Made by a program: the position numbers and the translations under genes. Positions 47,298-53,318 of a DNA stretch of 64,000 bases are shown piece by piece (positions within the stretch are counted from its first letter, which is position 1; each line of letters opens with the position of its first letter). Origin of the DNA: a virus (taxonomy: Duplodnaviria > Caudoviricetes); IMG/VR virus record IMGVR_UViG_3300027744_000019, positions 2,295 to 66,294 of that record; one strand, 5' to 3'. The notes beneath the pieces were generated by a model. It was not told the origin of the DNA and searched no databases. It worked only from the letters and a program-made list of their open reading frames with translations.

Positions 47298-48561
47298 TTG
47301 TTTCTATTTGATGGTTAATTGATTCAGGTTCTGGTTCAATAGTATTTTCAAGCTCAACTAACTGTTCTTTTAGATCAGCTCTTTCAACTCTTGTAATTGC
47401 TTCCTCTAAAAGTTCATCTTCTATTTGCTCTTCCATATACAATGAAGCCATTGCTCTTTCTTCTTCCTCATTCTCAATTTCTCTTTCCGGAAGAATATTA
47501 AATTCAGTTACTGAAGCAACTTCTTTAGAGTCCTCTTTATATTCTATTATACCAGTATAAGAATTATTAATTGCTGTTTGAACTTCTAGAGTAGGAACTA
47601 TTGCACTTACACTAAATGTAGTGCTATGAGCAATATTTCTGATAAACCAATCAGCTCTTTCTTGGAGTAAAACATGATTCCAATCTTTAGTAAGCAAGCC
47701 TAGCTCTATTAATTTCTTAGCTACTCTATCTGGATTTAACCAACCAATCTCTTTTACCGTTATACTGAAATAACTAACCATAGACTTAAAGTTCACATGA
47801 TTTCTAGTATGACATTCTGAAATTCTACCAGAATAATCTTCAAGAAGAAGCAATAGATACAAAGCACTGTCTATATAGTTAGAGTTTGCCATAATCTCCA
47901 TTGCCATGATATGATTATCCTGGTCAGAACTTTGAAACATCTTAACCAACTGCTGATATACTTCAGGAGTAATAGTAACTGCATCATCACCATTAATCAT
48001 AGCAAGTAACTCTGATTCATCAAAGATTGTTTTATTCTGAATATCATCAAGAATATCTTTATATTCATCTTCAACAAAATGAACACTAGAAGAATAACCT
48101 GATAATGTGACAAATCCTTTGTCATTCATATCCCTTGCTGTACTATACTCAATGTATATTTTTTCTGGATTACATGCTGCTATTGCTGTATCATACTTAT
48201 CTGTGTAATACATATCAAAACCCATATGAGGTTTTAACCACTCTACATATTTAGTAAACTCTTCTGTTTTAGCACTATGCAAATAACGTCCACATGTAAT
48301 TTTATTTATAGTAGCTCTACCAGAAATGATAACATTAGCTCTCTCAGCATCTCTAACTACTTTTACTCCAAGATTCAATGCTAAATCTTTAAGCTTAACC
48401 CTAGGAATATTAACTCCCGGCATTAAGAATATGCTATCTCCTTGTGCAGGAACATATCCTTTACTTACGGTATAAATATCATTCTTATTATCAGGTATAC
48501 CATAAAGTAAATCTACATCTAGTGTATCACCGTCTCTATTACAAATTATAATTTGTTCCAT
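47269..48561 (-). CDS. Hypothetical protein with BRCT-like N-terminal segment and MFxSxDxDN motif
   Basis: IFLMPGVNIPRVKLKDL...VKVVRDAERANVIIS resembles a BRCT strand/helix pattern. It contains LVKMFQSSDQDNHIMAMEIMANS and has an acidic C-terminal tail. Confidence 0.6.
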   Translation of the reverse strand: MEQIIICNRDGDTLDVDLLYGIPDNKNDIYTVSKGYVPAQGDSIFLMPGVNIPRVKLKDLALNLGVKVVRDAERANVIISGRATINKITCGRYLHSAKTEEFTKYVEWLKPHMGFDMYYTDKYDTAIAACNPEKIYIEYSTARDMNDKGFVTLSGYSSSVHFVEDEYKDILDDIQNKTIFDESELLAMINGDDAVTITPEVYQQLVKMFQSSDQDNHIMAMEIMANSNYIDSALYLLLLLEDYSGRISECHTRNHVNFKSMVSYFSITVKEIGWLNPDRVAKKLIELGLLTKDWNHVLLQERADWFIRNIAHSTTFSVSAIVPTLEVQTAINNSYTGIIEYKEDSKEVASVTEFNILPEREIENEEEERAMASLYMEEQIEDELLEEAITRVERADLKEQLVELENTIEPEPESINHQIETNESTDIDWF

Positions 48562-48569
48562 AATATAAA

Positions 48570-48594
48570 AATATAGGGGGCTATTACACCCCCT
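48570..48594 (-). terminator. Possible weak terminator after the MoxR gene
   Basis: - strand AGGGGGT-GTAATA-GCCCCCT followed by ATATTTTT. Confidence 0.4.
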
Positions 48595-48600
48595 GGTTAA

Positions 48601-49770
48601 TTACTGAATTGCCATTTTTACTACAGCAGTATCCGCCATTAAAGCAGAGAACTTAACTTTGTTACCGTTTACAATCTCCTTGACCATATAATATCTCAAG
48701 TCATTTGTAAAGCCATCAAACTCAGTAGTAACTTTAGCTAGTCTGTCAATCATAGCTTTAGGAACTGAACCTTTTTCAGCTACAGTAAGTGCATAGTTAA
48801 TTACACGAGTTGCAATTACACTAGAAAGATCTGCACGGAAGTCATCTCCTTCACCAACTGAAGCTAACAAAGCACCTTTTACATATGCTTCATCTTTAGT
48901 AAGCAAATCTTCCGGGGAAATCATCTTGTCAAGCTTGTTATTGATAAACATAGTAAACATGCTAGAGAAATCTGTACCAACAGAACCCTCACCAATCATC
49001 TGAACAAGAGGTAACTCATCTTCAAACTTTGGAATAGAACTAATACCATTAAAGAATGTAGTAATAGATCTTGGATTAACTCTCTGAGTTACAAGTTCTG
49101 GGTGCATCAACATGAAGTTGATACATCTGCCATCAATAGATGCTTTCTCAGCCCACTTAGCCCACACGTTGACATCATACTTCATCTCAACAGAGATAAA
49201 TCTTGTCTTCTGAGCTACGTCAAGACTGGTTACATTATAGTCACCATTGTCTGGATTAGTAGTCAAGATAACATGCCAGTTCTTTGGAAGCTTCCATGAT
49301 ACATATTCTTGGCGGTCCAAGATCTCCATGGTAGCTTGCATAAATCTGTGGTCAGCACGAGTATAGTCATCTAAGATTAGGAAACCACCCTCACCTTTAC
49401 CTTGAATCCACTCAGGAGCAGCATGAGACATTCTCTTATCTGCTACAGTATAACCTGCTTTCATCGCAGCTGGTACTTGAGCTTCAGTAATCCATCTTTG
49501 TTTACCTTCTTGGTTCTTTACTAAGAATTCTTTAACAGGAAAACCAACAAGGTCACCCAACTCCTCAATCTGAGATAGATTAAGTTTTACTACTTCCATA
49601 CCAAGTTCTTTACCTAACTGCAAGATTGCAGAAGTCTTACCAAGACCAGCATCACCCTCAATATTAATAGCCACAGGAATCTTTCCTTCAGACTGAATAT
49701 GTTGATTGTTTTTAACCATGTGACGGATAAAACCTTTTAACTCATCTACGTTCAATTGTACTGTATTCAT
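48601..49770 (-). CDS. MoxR-like AAA+ ATPase
   Basis: Walker A GDAGLGKT, LNLSQIEELGDLVGFP, Walker B FLILDDYTRA, ILTTNP and LDVAQKTRF. Adjacent to a VWA gene. Confidence 0.85.
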   Translation of the reverse strand: MNTVQLNVDELKGFIRHMVKNNQHIQSEGKIPVAINIEGDAGLGKTSAILQLGKELGMEVVKLNLSQIEELGDLVGFPVKEFLVKNQEGKQRWITEAQVPAAMKAGYTVADKRMSHAAPEWIQGKGEGGFLILDDYTRADHRFMQATMEILDRQEYVSWKLPKNWHVILTTNPDNGDYNVTSLDVAQKTRFISVEMKYDVNVWAKWAEKASIDGRCINFMLMHPELVTQRVNPRSITTFFNGISSIPKFEDELPLVQMIGEGSVGTDFSSMFTMFINNKLDKMISPEDLLTKDEAYVKGALLASVGEGDDFRADLSSVIATRVINYALTVAEKGSVPKAMIDRLAKVTTEFDGFTNDLRYYMVKEIVNGNKVKFSALMADTAVVKMAIQ

Positions 49771-49781
49771 AATATTTGTTT

Positions 49782-50522
49782 TTATAATTCTAACTTAATA
49801 ACTTGGCCCTTACACCTAAATCCATGTGTAAGAGCTTTTCTAACTGTGCCTTCATTGGCATTTAATAATAGTGCAGCTTCTTTAATACTTGATACAACAG
49901 TTGTTTCAACTCCATCAAATATGCTAATCTTCTTAATTGAATATGGTTTTCTATTTCTCTTAGAAATACTTGATATAGCATCAAACTTTTCCTTTCTCCA
50001 TTGAAAACCACTAGAAGATTTATAATTTCCACTTGCAGCATCTCCTATGGACTGCTCATTACCGTTAACAGCTAATGCAGCTTCCCTTATACTATTGTAC
50101 TCATTTACATAACAACCATCTAGGGTATATTGATATACCTTAATTGAAGCATGATTGTCCTTACCTAACCTTTTATTAGTGTTAGCCATTCTCAACTTTT
50201 CTTTTGTAATTTCACTTTTTATTCTACTTATAGGATCTCTTTCAGCATTGATATCACATTCATAATAATTAATGTAATGTACTTCTCTCTCAAGATAGTT
50301 CTCACAAAATTCAATAACAGTAAAAGTCATTTCTTCTTTATACAAATTATAGACTCTTTGAAGAAATTCATTGTAATGATTACCTCTCTTTAGAGAATTT
50401 AGATGCTGTTTATACCTAGAGTATATATCAACACTGCTACCCACGTATCTATGGGAATTTGTACTTATGATATACACTCCACACTTCTTATGTATATCCT
50501 GTTTTTGATGTTTTAATTTCAT
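49782..50522 (-). CDS. Free-standing GIY-YIG homing endonuclease with NUMOD3/NUMOD1-like DNA-binding repeats
   Basis: CGVYII...YVGSSVDIYSRYKQH...HYNEFLQRVYN, NUMOD3-like SEITKEKLR, and two NUMOD1-like segments (YNSIREAA; VSSIKEAA). ATG taken at 50522. Confidence 0.85.
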   Translation of the reverse strand: MKLKHQKQDIHKKCGVYIISTNSHRYVGSSVDIYSRYKQHLNSLKRGNHYNEFLQRVYNLYKEEMTFTVIEFCENYLEREVHYINYYECDINAERDPISRIKSEITKEKLRMANTNKRLGKDNHASIKVYQYTLDGCYVNEYNSIREAALAVNGNEQSIGDAASGNYKSSSGFQWRKEKFDAISSISKRNRKPYSIKKISIFDGVETTVVSSIKEAALLLNANEGTVRKALTHGFRCKGQVIKLEL

Positions 50523-50525
50523 ATA

Positions 50526-50533
50526 CAAATATA
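50526..50533 (-). promoter_or_regulatory. Bacteroidota -7 promoter element (TAnnTTTG) directly upstream of the homing endonuclease
   Basis: - strand TATATTTG-TAT-ATG, an exact match to the TAnnTTTG consensus in the short spacer. Confidence 0.5.
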
Positions 50534-50566
50534 CATAAAAAATGTGATTAAGTAATAAAATTGGAA

Positions 50567-51748
50567 TTAAAGTTCAAGTCTGATAACCTGTCCTGGAAGG
50601 TCTTCATTCATGCTTGATTGTTCTGACAAAACCCACAGAACTCTGTTTCTTGGTTTTACAGATGTATAACACTCTCCGTCAGTAAAATACACCAGGCTAG
50701 TATATTTCTTAAGGTTTGCATTGTAATAATCTAGGACGGGATCAAAGTCAGTCCCACCTCTTCCATGTACTTTGAGATCATTCTTGCCTTTGTAGGCTTC
50801 AATAGACCGGATACTTGTATCACATTGTACTATAGTAATATCAACTCCTGCTTTATGTATGTGATGAATCTCATTCATAAACTCAGTAAGTTCTGTATCA
50901 CTAACAGATCCAGAAGTGTCAATAGCCAATAGCATATGTTGCTTCATCTTGATCTTAAGACCAGGATTATCTTCATATCTATAGTTCTCTTTTCTTCGGA
51001 TCTTCTTAGTAAAGATTTTAGTACTTGTACCAGTGAATCTTCTAAGATATCCTTTCCAATCAAATTTAGCTTTGACAACTTCATCTAGAACAATCAGTCC
51101 TTCAATTTCTCCTGGAACATTACCACGTTTCTTAATGGTCTGTTCTTTGGCATCTTTTAGAATTTTCTGTACTTGTTTCTCAATAAGTTTCTTCTCAGCT
51201 TCAGACATGTCTTCAAACTCTTCCCATGTAGAATGATCTGGTATGTCTCCACTTGCAATGTTATCAAGTAGTTTATCCATTTCTTGATCACCACTTGTAC
51301 CATTCTTATCCTTCTCATCTTGAAGGCGGAGAAGCTGGTCATAGTAATATCTACAACCAGCCTTTCTATCTAGTTGAATGTCTGTATAGTCATCAATGTT
51401 GATACCTCCTTCTGGCAGCCAAGAGGCTTCAATATACTGATTAATTTCCATATCCATGGCAACATTTGCAAGTTTTTTGTTGCTAAAAGAACCAAAACTT
51501 ACAAGGTGACCAAATGCAATATGGAGTAATTCATGTTTCAGTAAGCCTGTCTTATGATCATCACTTAGACTATTCCAGAATTCTTCATTAATAGCCAATT
51601 GATAATTAATATTCTGCTTACTTACACCTGCAGTAGGGAGATCTTTTCTCCATACTTTATTCAACATAATGAGAAAGAACCCGTAATAGGGCTCTTTCAA
51701 CATTAGTTCTTTACTAATTTTACTAAGACTCCGTGCTTTGTCCATCAT
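50567..51748 (-). CDS. VWA-domain protein with N-terminal HExxH metallopeptidase-like domain (DUF2201-like)
   Basis: LLKHELLHIAFGH, NVAMDMEINQ, MIDAS LAIDTSGSVS, GRGGTDF and YFTDGE. Confidence 0.85.
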   Translation of the reverse strand: MMDKARSLSKISKELMLKEPYYGFFLIMLNKVWRKDLPTAGVSKQNINYQLAINEEFWNSLSDDHKTGLLKHELLHIAFGHLVSFGSFSNKKLANVAMDMEINQYIEASWLPEGGINIDDYTDIQLDRKAGCRYYYDQLLRLQDEKDKNGTSGDQEMDKLLDNIASGDIPDHSTWEEFEDMSEAEKKLIEKQVQKILKDAKEQTIKKRGNVPGEIEGLIVLDEVVKAKFDWKGYLRRFTGTSTKIFTKKIRRKENYRYEDNPGLKIKMKQHMLLAIDTSGSVSDTELTEFMNEIHHIHKAGVDITIVQCDTSIRSIEAYKGKNDLKVHGRGGTDFDPVLDYYNANLKKYTSLVYFTDGECYTSVKPRNRVLWVLSEQSSMNEDLPGQVIRLEL

Positions 51749-52130
51749 CTTTAATTTTCACATCAATGCTTATTTGATTCATATCATAACCTATCTGACC
51801 CAACATGCTTGTTAGATCTCTGACAAAGTTTTCTATGAATAGCTCAACCAAAAGCTTATCGGCTTTGTATGTAGTTAATAATCCTAGTACTCTTGCACTA
51901 GATAATGACCCTATCTGTTCAGATATAACGGGTAAAACTATCTTATAAGATTTTGGTGCTTGTTTACCCCAAACTGTAGAATCTTTTTTAGAATACTTAT
52001 ATAATACAATTAGCTCTGCTATACTCAAACCACTGTTCTCTATTACTTCAAAAGCAATAGTATGGTTATCTGCATCACTAGAGTTAAACATAGAAATCAG
52101 ATTGTTCAATTCAGCTTTACTTAGTTTCAT
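51723..52130 (-). CDS. Hypothetical protein with MFxSxDxDN motif
   Basis: 135 aa. The N-terminus LISMFNSSDADNHTIAFEVIENS matches the motif in 47269..48561. Confidence 0.7.
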   Translation of the reverse strand: MKLSKAELNNLISMFNSSDADNHTIAFEVIENSGLSIAELIVLYKYSKKDSTVWGKQAPKSYKIVLPVISEQIGSLSSARVLGLLTTYKADKLLVELFIENFVRDLTSMLGQIGYDMNQISIDVKIKDDGQSTES

Positions 52131-52471
52131 TAGTCTTCAATTTTAAGTGTCTTAATCATCCATTCTGTGGGTTTATTAATATTATCAACCCACTCTTTTG
52201 CACTTGGGATATATCCATTGCAGTCTTCTTTTACGTGCTGCTCTCCAATATATCTTACGTACACTTTCTTACCATCAGAGTTTTCAATGATCTGGCCAAA
52301 GATCTTTTCACATTCAAATATGCCCTCACTGTGGTGACGGAACATTCTGTGTTTACTATGGCCAATCCAAGCCTTTGTAGCATCAAACCACTCATGGATC
52401 TCTAGATAGTCTAACCAAGAACCACCAAACTTTCTAGCTGATGATTTTGCATGTTCTACAGGATGTGACAT
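52130..52471 (-). CDS. DUF6915-like protein
   Basis: HPxxHAKSSARKFGG...IHEWFDATK...HRMFRHHSEG...IGEQHVKED, a His-rich pattern I recognise as this family. Confidence 0.75.
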   Translation of the reverse strand: MSHPVEHAKSSARKFGGSWLDYLEIHEWFDATKAWIGHSKHRMFRHHSEGIFECEKIFGQIIENSDGKKVYVRYIGEQHVKEDCNGYIPSAKEWVDNINKPTEWMIKTLKIED

Positions 52472-52890
52472 TAGTCTAGAGATTTATTTATTAAGGATCC
52501 TTCATGTGTATATGTATCAACTTCAGTAACTCTAATATTATTCATTACATCATACTTACCAGATGGTACTAGAATACACATTGTACCATAACCACCTTCA
52601 TTATTCCACCAATCTTCTACATCATTTAGAATCTTTTCCTCAGCAAAATTTTCAATATCAGAAGATAAACCAGAATCAAGATTTCTTAAATACTTAGCTC
52701 CTTCTTCCCAAGAATTAAGAGATCTAAGTTTATCAAAAGCTTTTTCTTCATCTTCAGGAAGTTTATCTGTTGTATAAAGTACTTCATCTATACAGCCAGA
52801 GTCTCCACTACCTTCATAATATATCTGGATACCAGTCACACCAAGGTCAGCCAACTGAATCAGGAGGCTTGTCATCATTGTTTCATTCAT
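52471..52890 (-). CDS. DUF6878-like protein
   Basis: GVTGIQIYYEGSGDSG...WWNNEGGYG motifs. Acidic. Confidence 0.7.
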   Translation of the reverse strand: MNETMMTSLLIQLADLGVTGIQIYYEGSGDSGCIDEVLYTTDKLPEDEEKAFDKLRSLNSWEEGAKYLRNLDSGLSSDIENFAEEKILNDVEDWWNNEGGYGTMCILVPSGKYDVMNNIRVTEVDTYTHEGSLINKSLD

Positions 52891-52892
52891 AA

Positions 52893-53318
52893 CTATTTAA
52901 TTTTGTAAAACCTGCCAAGGATATTGGCATTTAAATATTCTTCTTTTTCTAGCACCTCTCTTGTAAATTGGTACTTGGTCTCATGATATGTTAGTTCTGT
53001 CTTAGAAAAACAGATTCTTACCATGAACCTTTTAATGGGAACACCATTCTTATGTGCATCTTGTAGCACTTTATTGCTACTATAGTAGTTCTGATAGTTA
53101 GGTTTTACCTGGATAGTGTATTTCTTTGCACGTTTGTCTTCCATATTAGCAAGAGCTTTTACTCCAAACTTTTTCTTAGTTGTGGAATAGAAGTTCTTCT
53201 TACCAACATACCTAACAGACTTACCATCTATGATAGTTTCCATTTCATATATAAACCCAATGGCTCCTTCTGGAATCTTGCTGTCATTAAATACTTCTCC
53301 TTTGTATAACCAACTCAT
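52893..53318 (-). CDS. Short GIY-YIG nuclease-fold protein
   Basis: GFIY...RYVGKK...NYYSS...LTYHE...YLNANI, with no appended DNA-binding repeats. Confidence 0.65.
   Translation of the reverse strand: MSWLYKGEVFNDSKIPEGAIGFIYEMETIIDGKSVRYVGKKNFYSTTKKKFGVKALANMEDKRAKKYTIQVKPNYQNYYSSNKVLQDAHKNGVPIKRFMVRICFSKTELTYHETKYQFTREVLEKEEYLNANILGRFYKIK

Follow-up and report, generated by a model that had tools for sequence, protein, structure and literature searches.

On the minus strand of the window (the whole 64,000-nt stretch of viral DNA analysed here), a GIY-YIG endonuclease gene stands between a VWA/DUF2201 gene, which we refer to as the target gene, and an AAA-type ATPase gene, with all three in the same orientation (Table 1). 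The target protein comprises, according to Pfam, a DUF2201_N metallopeptidase-like domain and a VWA-like DUF2201 domain, with the VWA-like match reaching residue 391 of 393; for the product of the downstream ATPase gene no Pfam family was matched, and the name used here is that of PHROGs, 'MoxR' being the label given by an earlier note on this DNA. The VWA and endonuclease ORFs are separated by a stop codon and a 44-nt spacer. The endonuclease ATG lies at position 50522, while the longest ORF call begins at a TTG (50528). At its other end, the endonuclease ORF takes its last eight residues and its stop codon from a 27-nt segment that, read in frame, is a second copy of the end of the VWA gene.

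Table 1 Features of the VWA–endonuclease–ATPase locus in the window
Feature	Positions	Strand	Basis
VWA/DUF2201 target gene, 393 aa, intact	50567-51748	-	ORF; Pfam PF13203 and PF09967; phrog_1314
Replacement VWA 3' end, last ~12 codons and stop	50567-50605	-	15/40 versus 48/1130 nt difference from L001; fixed ctt/ctt/gga
Upstream repeat copy (last 27 nt of the VWA gene)	50567-50593	-	Lies within the replacement end
Cassette spacer, 44 nt	50523-50566	-	Kept in all endonuclease-bearing loci, absent from endonuclease-free loci
Endonuclease ORF, GIY-YIG/NUMOD1, 246 aa	49782-50522	-	ORF list; Pfam
Endonuclease body, codons 1-238, mobile part	49809-50522	-	Pfam PF01541 and PF07453; AlphaFold2 model; identity island
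Displaced native VWA 3' end, 8 codons and stop	49782-49808	-	1 nt from the L001 VWA end
Native VWA-ATPase spacer, 11 nt, A-rich	49771-49781	-	Identical to the L001 spacer
AAA-type ATPase gene, 389 aa, uninterrupted in the window	48601-49770	-	ORF; phrog_1297 'ATPase' (PHROGs)

An earlier note on this DNA had claimed that the two ORFs share similar ends spelled with mostly different codons, and that the second copy runs into a junction of native appearance; all of this could be reproduced. The VWA protein ends PGQVIRLEL and the GIY-YIG ORF ends KGQVIKLEL, with seven of the last eight residues identical and the stops in register, and six of the eight codons differ (9 of 27 nt, stop included). 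Beyond the second copy come 11 nt of A-rich spacer and the ATPase ATG. When the last eight residues of the 57 window ORFs of at least 60 aa were compared with one another, the VWA/endonuclease pair was the sole one among 1596 to match at more than 5 positions. At the nucleotide level, the longest identical run between the two copies in the window is about 5 nt.

We examined this arrangement in relatives of the locus. A scan of IMG/VR with the VWA protein returned 591 relatives, the best 80 of which were kept for junction reading; after further scans, the endonuclease-bearing set came to 19 loci with 14 distinct VWA tails. All close relatives compared are metagenomic contigs from IMG/VR: a DNA search of deposited phage genomes with the 3.1-kb region gave no match, and since protein searches of those genomes yielded only distant relatives (at most 30-34% identity), the close comparisons rest on these contigs. 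About 66 loci among the best 80 of the 591 relatives are free of the endonuclease and read directly from the VWA stop through a short A-rich spacer, 11 nt long in most of them, into the ATPase ATG. The 178-nt spacer of one locus (L047) was considered as a decayed endonuclease; it holds an unrelated small ORF, which rules this out.

The VWA genes of the endonuclease-free loci finish with the codons tta gaa tta (or cta) taa, and the window's downstream copy is spelled in this way. The earlier note had expected such relatives to resemble this copy, and they do: their VWA end and spacer match 49782-49808 and not 50567-50593. The downstream copy is the native VWA end; its last 24 nt are identical to one endonuclease-free VWA tail. 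Across the endonuclease-free tails (67 in number, 25 of them distinct), the leucine at position -3 is spelled tta in 23/25 and that at -1 as tta or cta in 25/25, with mostly ggt for the glycine at -8. The VWA tails linked to the endonuclease have ctt at -3, ctt at -1 and gga at -8 in 14/14 distinct sequences (19/19 loci), and the recoded VWA end always travels with the endonuclease. Nucleotide distances tell the same story from the other side, as the endonuclease's own tail lies 0-2 nt from some endonuclease-free tail in most loci (up to 4 in one), and the working VWA tail of the same loci lies 4-5 nt from its nearest endonuclease-free counterpart. In every occupied locus, it is the endonuclease tail that is nearer to an endonuclease-free VWA tail.

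The borders of the inserted DNA could be read from pairs of occupied and empty loci that are otherwise closely similar. Loci L073 (occupied) and L079 (empty) differ at 12 of 40 nt at the VWA end as against 7 of 1130 nt upstream, and 26 of the 27 nt of the endonuclease tail match the VWA end of the empty allele, with the following spacer and the ATPase start nearly identical. For L034 and L031 the corresponding figures are 10/40 and 10/1130, all ten changes being synonymous, and for the window and L001, its closest endonuclease-free relative among the best 80 of 591, they are 15/40 and 48/1130. The excess of differences at the VWA end in the three pairs is significant (Fisher p 1e-10 to 1e-14), and the recoding of the replacement end in the window falls mostly at synonymous sites. 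Because the differences of near-isogenic pairs cluster there, the unit by which occupied and empty genomes differ can be delimited: it begins some 30-40 nt ahead of the VWA stop and ends with the final codon of the endonuclease body, the native tail flanking it on the right. The claim of the earlier note that the element brought a recoded VWA end, while the native end became the endonuclease's C-terminus, is thus in agreement with both the empty relatives and the near-isogenic pairs.

A shared C-terminus might have belonged to the enzyme from the start, rather than having been acquired from its target. The endonucleases form 32 protein clusters of 57-95% identity, all of them 246 aa long, intact and ending in [VI]IKLE[LI], and every such copy with readable flanks (19 loci) sits at the same VWA site. 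A distant lineage (L086, L105 and L106), with VWA and ATPase proteins only 45-50% identical to those of the window and an endonuclease 44-46% identical, was informative: here the VWA gene and the endonuclease both end in GLKIKLN before the stop, with differing codons. The nearest empty relatives of this lineage end in GLVIKLN; over their last five codons, 15/15 nt are identical to the endonuclease copy and 13/15 to the working copy. Because the distant lineage has GLKIKLN at both ends, the tail comes from the host gene. In three loci (L082, L052 and L080) the ATPase gene contains a group I intron that houses a GIY-YIG paralogue, 36-38% identical; the intron was recognised by Rfam (RF00028, 82-83 bits) in L082 and L052, and L080 was identified by protein match only. 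This paralogue ends in GGYRWKKA, an ordinary NUMOD-type ending. The earlier note had raised the prospect that free homologues of the endonuclease already end in GQVIKLEL; none of the homologues outside the VWA insertion site does so, with GGYRWKKA in the intron paralogue and GLKIKLN in the distant lineage.

The endonuclease tail has Q, K or H at position -7, and both this residue and the spacer after the tail go with the recipient lineage. The first tail codon is invariably Gly in the VWA gene; some endonuclease copies have K, S, D or E there, and a few have Ile in place of the last Leu. VIKLE is otherwise kept, with V or I in its first place in the cluster pattern. For the residues that do stay constant, either the enzyme constrains them or frequent homing resets them. 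These observations bear on the suggestion that the likeness of the two C-termini is a product of convergence or chance. NUMOD modules do tend to end in Gly plus an amphipathic strand much like GQVIKLEL, as seen in their G[FY]xW[RK]K-like strands (FQWRKE in module 1 of this enzyme, GYRWKK in the intron paralogue), but the match extends to the DNA level and into a non-coding spacer, the tail tracks the recipient lineage at -7 and again as GLKIKLN in the distant lineage, and nowhere else among the ORF ends of the window is there a pair of similar likeness. We regard chance or convergence as refuted by these nucleotide-level and lineage-specific matches, and give it practically no weight.

We then considered the protein itself. 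The endonuclease has a GIY-YIG catalytic domain (PF01541, E 1.3e-6, above the curated cutoff) with conserved residues, Y17, Y26, G28, R36, H40 and E80 being invariant and N92 nearly so among 34 homologues. It also has a C-terminal DNA-binding region of the NUMOD/helix-turn-helix kind, seen by Pfam (NUMOD1, PF07453, E 2.8e-11, residues 127-162), by module alignment and in the predicted structure. An AlphaFold2 model made with the 34 homologues (pLDDT 86) has as its best Foldseek matches the catalytic domain of I-TevI (1LN0/1MK0, E 3e-5 to 8e-5, TM 0.70-0.79). C-terminal of the catalytic domain, it contains two strand-strand-helix-helix-strand modules, the second of which (residues 196-246) aligns to the first at 35% identity. 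In this model residues 240-245, which belong to the captured tail, make up the last strand of module 2, in the place taken by FQWR (173-176) in module 1, and in the module alignment the opening Gly of the tail falls opposite the Gly in the G[FY]xW[RK]K ending. A BLAST alignment with the intron paralogue sets GFRCK, not GQVIK, against GYRWK, which leaves the register of the tail ambiguous. As modelled, the C-terminal DNA-binding module of the enzyme would have the captured tail as its last beta strand.

The earlier note had also claimed that the endonuclease possesses its own sequence element, and TATATTTG does occur on the minus strand (50526-50533), ending 3 nt short of the endonuclease ATG. 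The box is kept before nearly every endonuclease copy, including the most distant, with TATTTTTG in one locus, and it resembles the Bacteroidota -7 promoter box; we regard it as a putative promoter. As TAnnTTTG is not enriched in the window (83 found versus 92.6 expected), what speaks for this reading is the conservation of the box within the cassette. A sigma-70 scan gave promoter-like matches no commoner than those in shuffled sequence, and a terminator scan found no terminator-like site.

Evidence for mobility came from comparing occupied loci with one another. Counted from the VWA stop, the window and L009 agree at every position between -77 and +791, as against about 91% identity in their flanks, and with L006 an identical block runs from -44 to +885. 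Comparison of the window with L073 and L082 gave endonuclease bodies 96-97% identical within flanks of 74-79%; where the repeated tail begins, at its first codon, mismatches become as dense as in the flanks. L054 and L060 present the converse case, with flanks 91-94% identical and endonuclease bodies at 82%. In a phylogeny of the flanking genes that excludes the junction and does not separate gains from losses, the presence of the endonuclease requires 10 changes for 12 positive rows out of 78, as compared with a mean of 11.3 after shuffling. The element is scattered in its presence and, in the comparisons with the window, more alike than its surroundings; such identity islands and scatter are the marks expected of homing with short conversion tracts of variable length. 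Read at the level of sequence, the alignments show that the cassette moved horizontally between diverged phage lineages.

The same data weigh against the idea of a frozen relic, in which an ancient duplication of the VWA end and insertion of the endonuclease were followed by vertical inheritance and many losses, homing having ended. The arrangement is old, being present in lineages only 45-50% identical, and both the inability of the flank tree to tell gains from losses and the existence of mosaic endonuclease-free tails (see below) are compatible with such a history. The cassette-centred islands (100% versus about 91%, and 96-97% versus 74-79%), together with the converse cases, nevertheless require recent transfer, and all endonuclease copies are full length with conserved catalytic residues. 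We consider a relic of this kind very improbable.

Taken as a whole, we read the locus as a free-standing GIY-YIG/NUMOD1 homing cassette, inserted 24-27 nt before the VWA stop, that carries a spare gene end and spreads by a proposed homing process; we put the probability of this reading at roughly 85%. The mobile unit consists of the recoded VWA end (about 30-40 nt, with its stop), the 44-nt spacer and the endonuclease body. Having no stop of its own, the body reads into the displaced native VWA end and uses the native stop, so that the native spacer and the ATPase start are left untouched. In the process we envisage, the enzyme would cleave alleles that lack the endonuclease, close to where the VWA and ATPase genes meet. 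A co-infecting genome that has the endonuclease would serve as the template for repair, and the cassette would be copied from it; homology would be provided on the left by the VWA body and on the right by the native tail together with the spacer and the ATPase gene. In the occupied allele, the recoded end would then prevent either re-cutting or loss of the cassette by recombination between the repeats.

The fixation of ctt, ctt and gga across endonuclease lineages that are only 60-70% identical suggests selection on the DNA itself. Since the unrecoded native tail persists in the occupied genome, recoding could confer protection only on condition that the enzyme also recognises VWA sequence lying upstream of the tail. 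An I-TevI-like CNNNG motif at the Pro-Gly codons was examined as a clue to immunity and set aside, as it is present in empty and occupied alleles alike. The recoded tail also keeps position -7 (Q, K or H) in step with the recipient lineage, though recoded codons lie on both sides of it, and because of this the simple import of one donor tail fails to explain it.

An alternative view of the recoding is that it is maintained mainly to remove homology between the 27-nt direct repeats and so to block precise deletion of the cassette, immunity being conferred by the insertion itself, which would split the recognition site. The shortness of the identical runs between the two copies in the window fits this, as does the fact that, with an intact native tail beside the endonuclease, recoding of the other copy is not obviously needed for immunity. 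Some endonuclease-free tails are mosaic, with ctt gaa followed by tta taa in L016, L018 and L021 and other breakpoints in L043, L023 and L045; the patterns resemble crossovers within the repeat, and L009, which bears the endonuclease, is the sister of L018 on the flank tree. On the other hand, any synonymous change would serve to break up homology, yet ctt, ctt and gga are fixed across lineages 60-70% identical while other third positions drift, unless the fixed codons only mirror codon preference in an AT-rich genome. We regard it as possible that recombination is the main reason for the recoding, though we lean somewhat against it. The fixed ctt and gga codons could reflect common descent and selection against repeat recombination rather than immunity, and as reasons for recoding, suppression of repeat recombination and protection from cleavage are equally good and do not exclude one another.

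Within the homing reading, a more specific version can be put forward tentatively, on the understanding that it is less probable than its opposite. The enzyme would have become structurally dependent on its insertion site, the captured tail replacing the canonical last strand (G[FY]xW[RK]K) of the DNA-binding module, so that the same 24-27 bp would serve as part of the enzyme, as the right homology arm and possibly as half of the target. Partly recoded empty alleles such as those of L018, L043 and similar loci would have been left by excision or abortive homing, and alleles of the L018/L043 type would be resistant. In that case, a single natural phage population would display a homing element's whole cycle of invasion, loss and acquired immunity.

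The usual view is that homing endonucleases gain access to coding DNA chiefly under cover of introns or inteins, or else remain intergenic. The present locus shows a third route in phages, with population-level evidence: an element that brings a spare, differently spelled gene end. The evidence base comprises about 66 empty sites and about 20 occupied ones (from the best 80 of 591 relatives and further scans), near-isogenic pairs included. In some of the same phages, a related enzyme has entered the neighbouring gene through a group I intron, making the two solutions directly comparable. There are practical consequences as well: gene calling and pangenome clustering will be misled where an endonuclease gene is bordered by short duplicated gene ends, and the natural pairs of empty and occupied alleles are ready substrates for defining a new GIY-YIG specificity.

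Among known systems, T4-like phages carry free-standing GIY-YIG (Seg) and HNH (Mob) endonucleases that practise 'intronless homing' and, as far as is known, lie between genes or split genes into two working pieces. Papers on this group include a review (PMC2988022) and accounts of SegB (PMC2330249) and MobE (PMC2790892). The cassette described here resembles these in being phage-borne and scattered, in having its own, here putative, expression signals, in gene conversion with short flanks and in that the occupied genome differs at the site. It departs from them in its spare gene end and in the borrowed tail of its target; to our knowledge, neither Seg nor Mob enzymes have been described as carrying a duplicate gene end or borrowing their target's end. 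With I-TevI and other intron-encoded GIY-YIG enzymes it has in common the catalytic fold, the NUMOD/helix-turn-helix modules and the invasion of coding sequence without its destruction, but here the gene is kept whole in the DNA by a spare end and not by RNA splicing. The endonuclease is not group I intron-encoded: no Rfam match was found around it (48000-52500, E up to 1), and the only intron match in L082 lies in the ATPase gene. An intein was likewise rejected, given the VWA stop and the 44-nt spacer between the ORFs and the absence of intein domains in the Pfam search.

The closest analogue lies in fungal mitochondria, in keeping with the precedent named by the earlier note, which proved to be real. 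In the 'gene hybrids' formed by mobile endonuclease ORFs (mORFs), an in-frame substitute C-terminal segment is carried into a gene and the native segment is left downstream; examples are atp6 of Allomyces macrogynus, atp6, atp9, cox2 and nad3 of Glomus sp., atp9 of Rhizopus oryzae and cox2 of Mortierella verticillata. In these cases it is the native segment that clusters with close relatives, and the inserted one has diverged from them, mostly through synonymous differences (PMC3630166). The phage locus, like the fungal ones, has an endonuclease ORF in the 3' part of a gene with no intron or intein. Its insert, placed within the coding sequence, provides the gene with a substitute end in frame, stop included (linked to the endonuclease in 19/19 loci), the native end downstream groups with endonuclease-free relatives, and the inserted end is divergent. 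Our search of the literature, with much subscription literature outside its scope, found no published phage example of this gene-end design. There are clear differences from the fungal cases too: the host is a phage, the duplicated segment is only eight codons long, and the endonuclease starts independently, after a stop codon and a spacer, whereas the ORF in Glomus atp6 is in phase with the upstream gene. Most particular to this locus is the fate of the displaced native end, which is no silent remnant: the endonuclease has it as its translated C-terminus and takes its stop codon from it.

In several of the IMG/VR contig loci related to the window's VWA region, the ATPase gene that lies downstream of the VWA gene is itself interrupted by a group I intron, which was detected using the Rfam model with scores of 82-83 bits (L082 and L052) and is inserted after the residues ...LDDYTRAD. 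The intron contains an ORF encoding a GIY-YIG/NUMOD1 endonuclease of 249 aa, which is 36-38% identical to the window's own endonuclease. In three of these loci (L082-L084), the intron element and the VWA-site endonuclease are both present and adjoin each other. The ATPase gene of the window is without the intron.

Location of the features discussed, by contig locus or window position
Feature	Location	Strand	Detection
Group I intron in ATPase gene	L082:2231-3272; also L083, L084, L052, L080		Rfam RF00028 (L082, L052); protein match only (L080)
VWA gene	window 50567-51748	-	
GIY-YIG/NUMOD1 endonuclease	window 49782-50522	-	
SegE-type GIY-YIG domain ORF, 141 aa	window 52893-53318	-	PF19835, E 1.4e-17
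VWA-ATPase spacer	L047:3768-3948		
Region around the start of the ATPase match	L119, L120, L130, about 2400-2500 in each		

The SegE-type ORF is the window's second endonuclease-like gene, 2.3 kb away from the first; the way this ORF ends does not resemble the end of the preceding gene. In one endonuclease-free relative (L047), 178 nt separate the VWA and ATPase genes; we considered this spacer as a possible endonuclease remnant and rejected that reading. The spacer holds a small unrelated ORF, which overlaps the VWA stop.

The VWA gene is ~123 nt longer in nine relatives (L009, L016, L018, L021, L042, L043, L045, L058 and L059; 1302-1305 nt vs 1179 nt); when aligned to the window, the additional sequence falls ~840 nt upstream of the stop. 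Homologues of the metallopeptidase/VWA protein carry the label 'HNH endonuclease', both in PHROGs (phrog_1314) and in many GenBank phage records. Since Pfam detects no HNH domain in the window's VWA protein, this name looks like a propagated misannotation.

Finally, in three distant relatives (L119, L120 and L130), the ATPase match begins only from residue 75, and is preceded, in place of the VWA gene, by a conserved non-coding stretch of ~90 nt, which may represent a second interruption site or intron of the ATPase gene.
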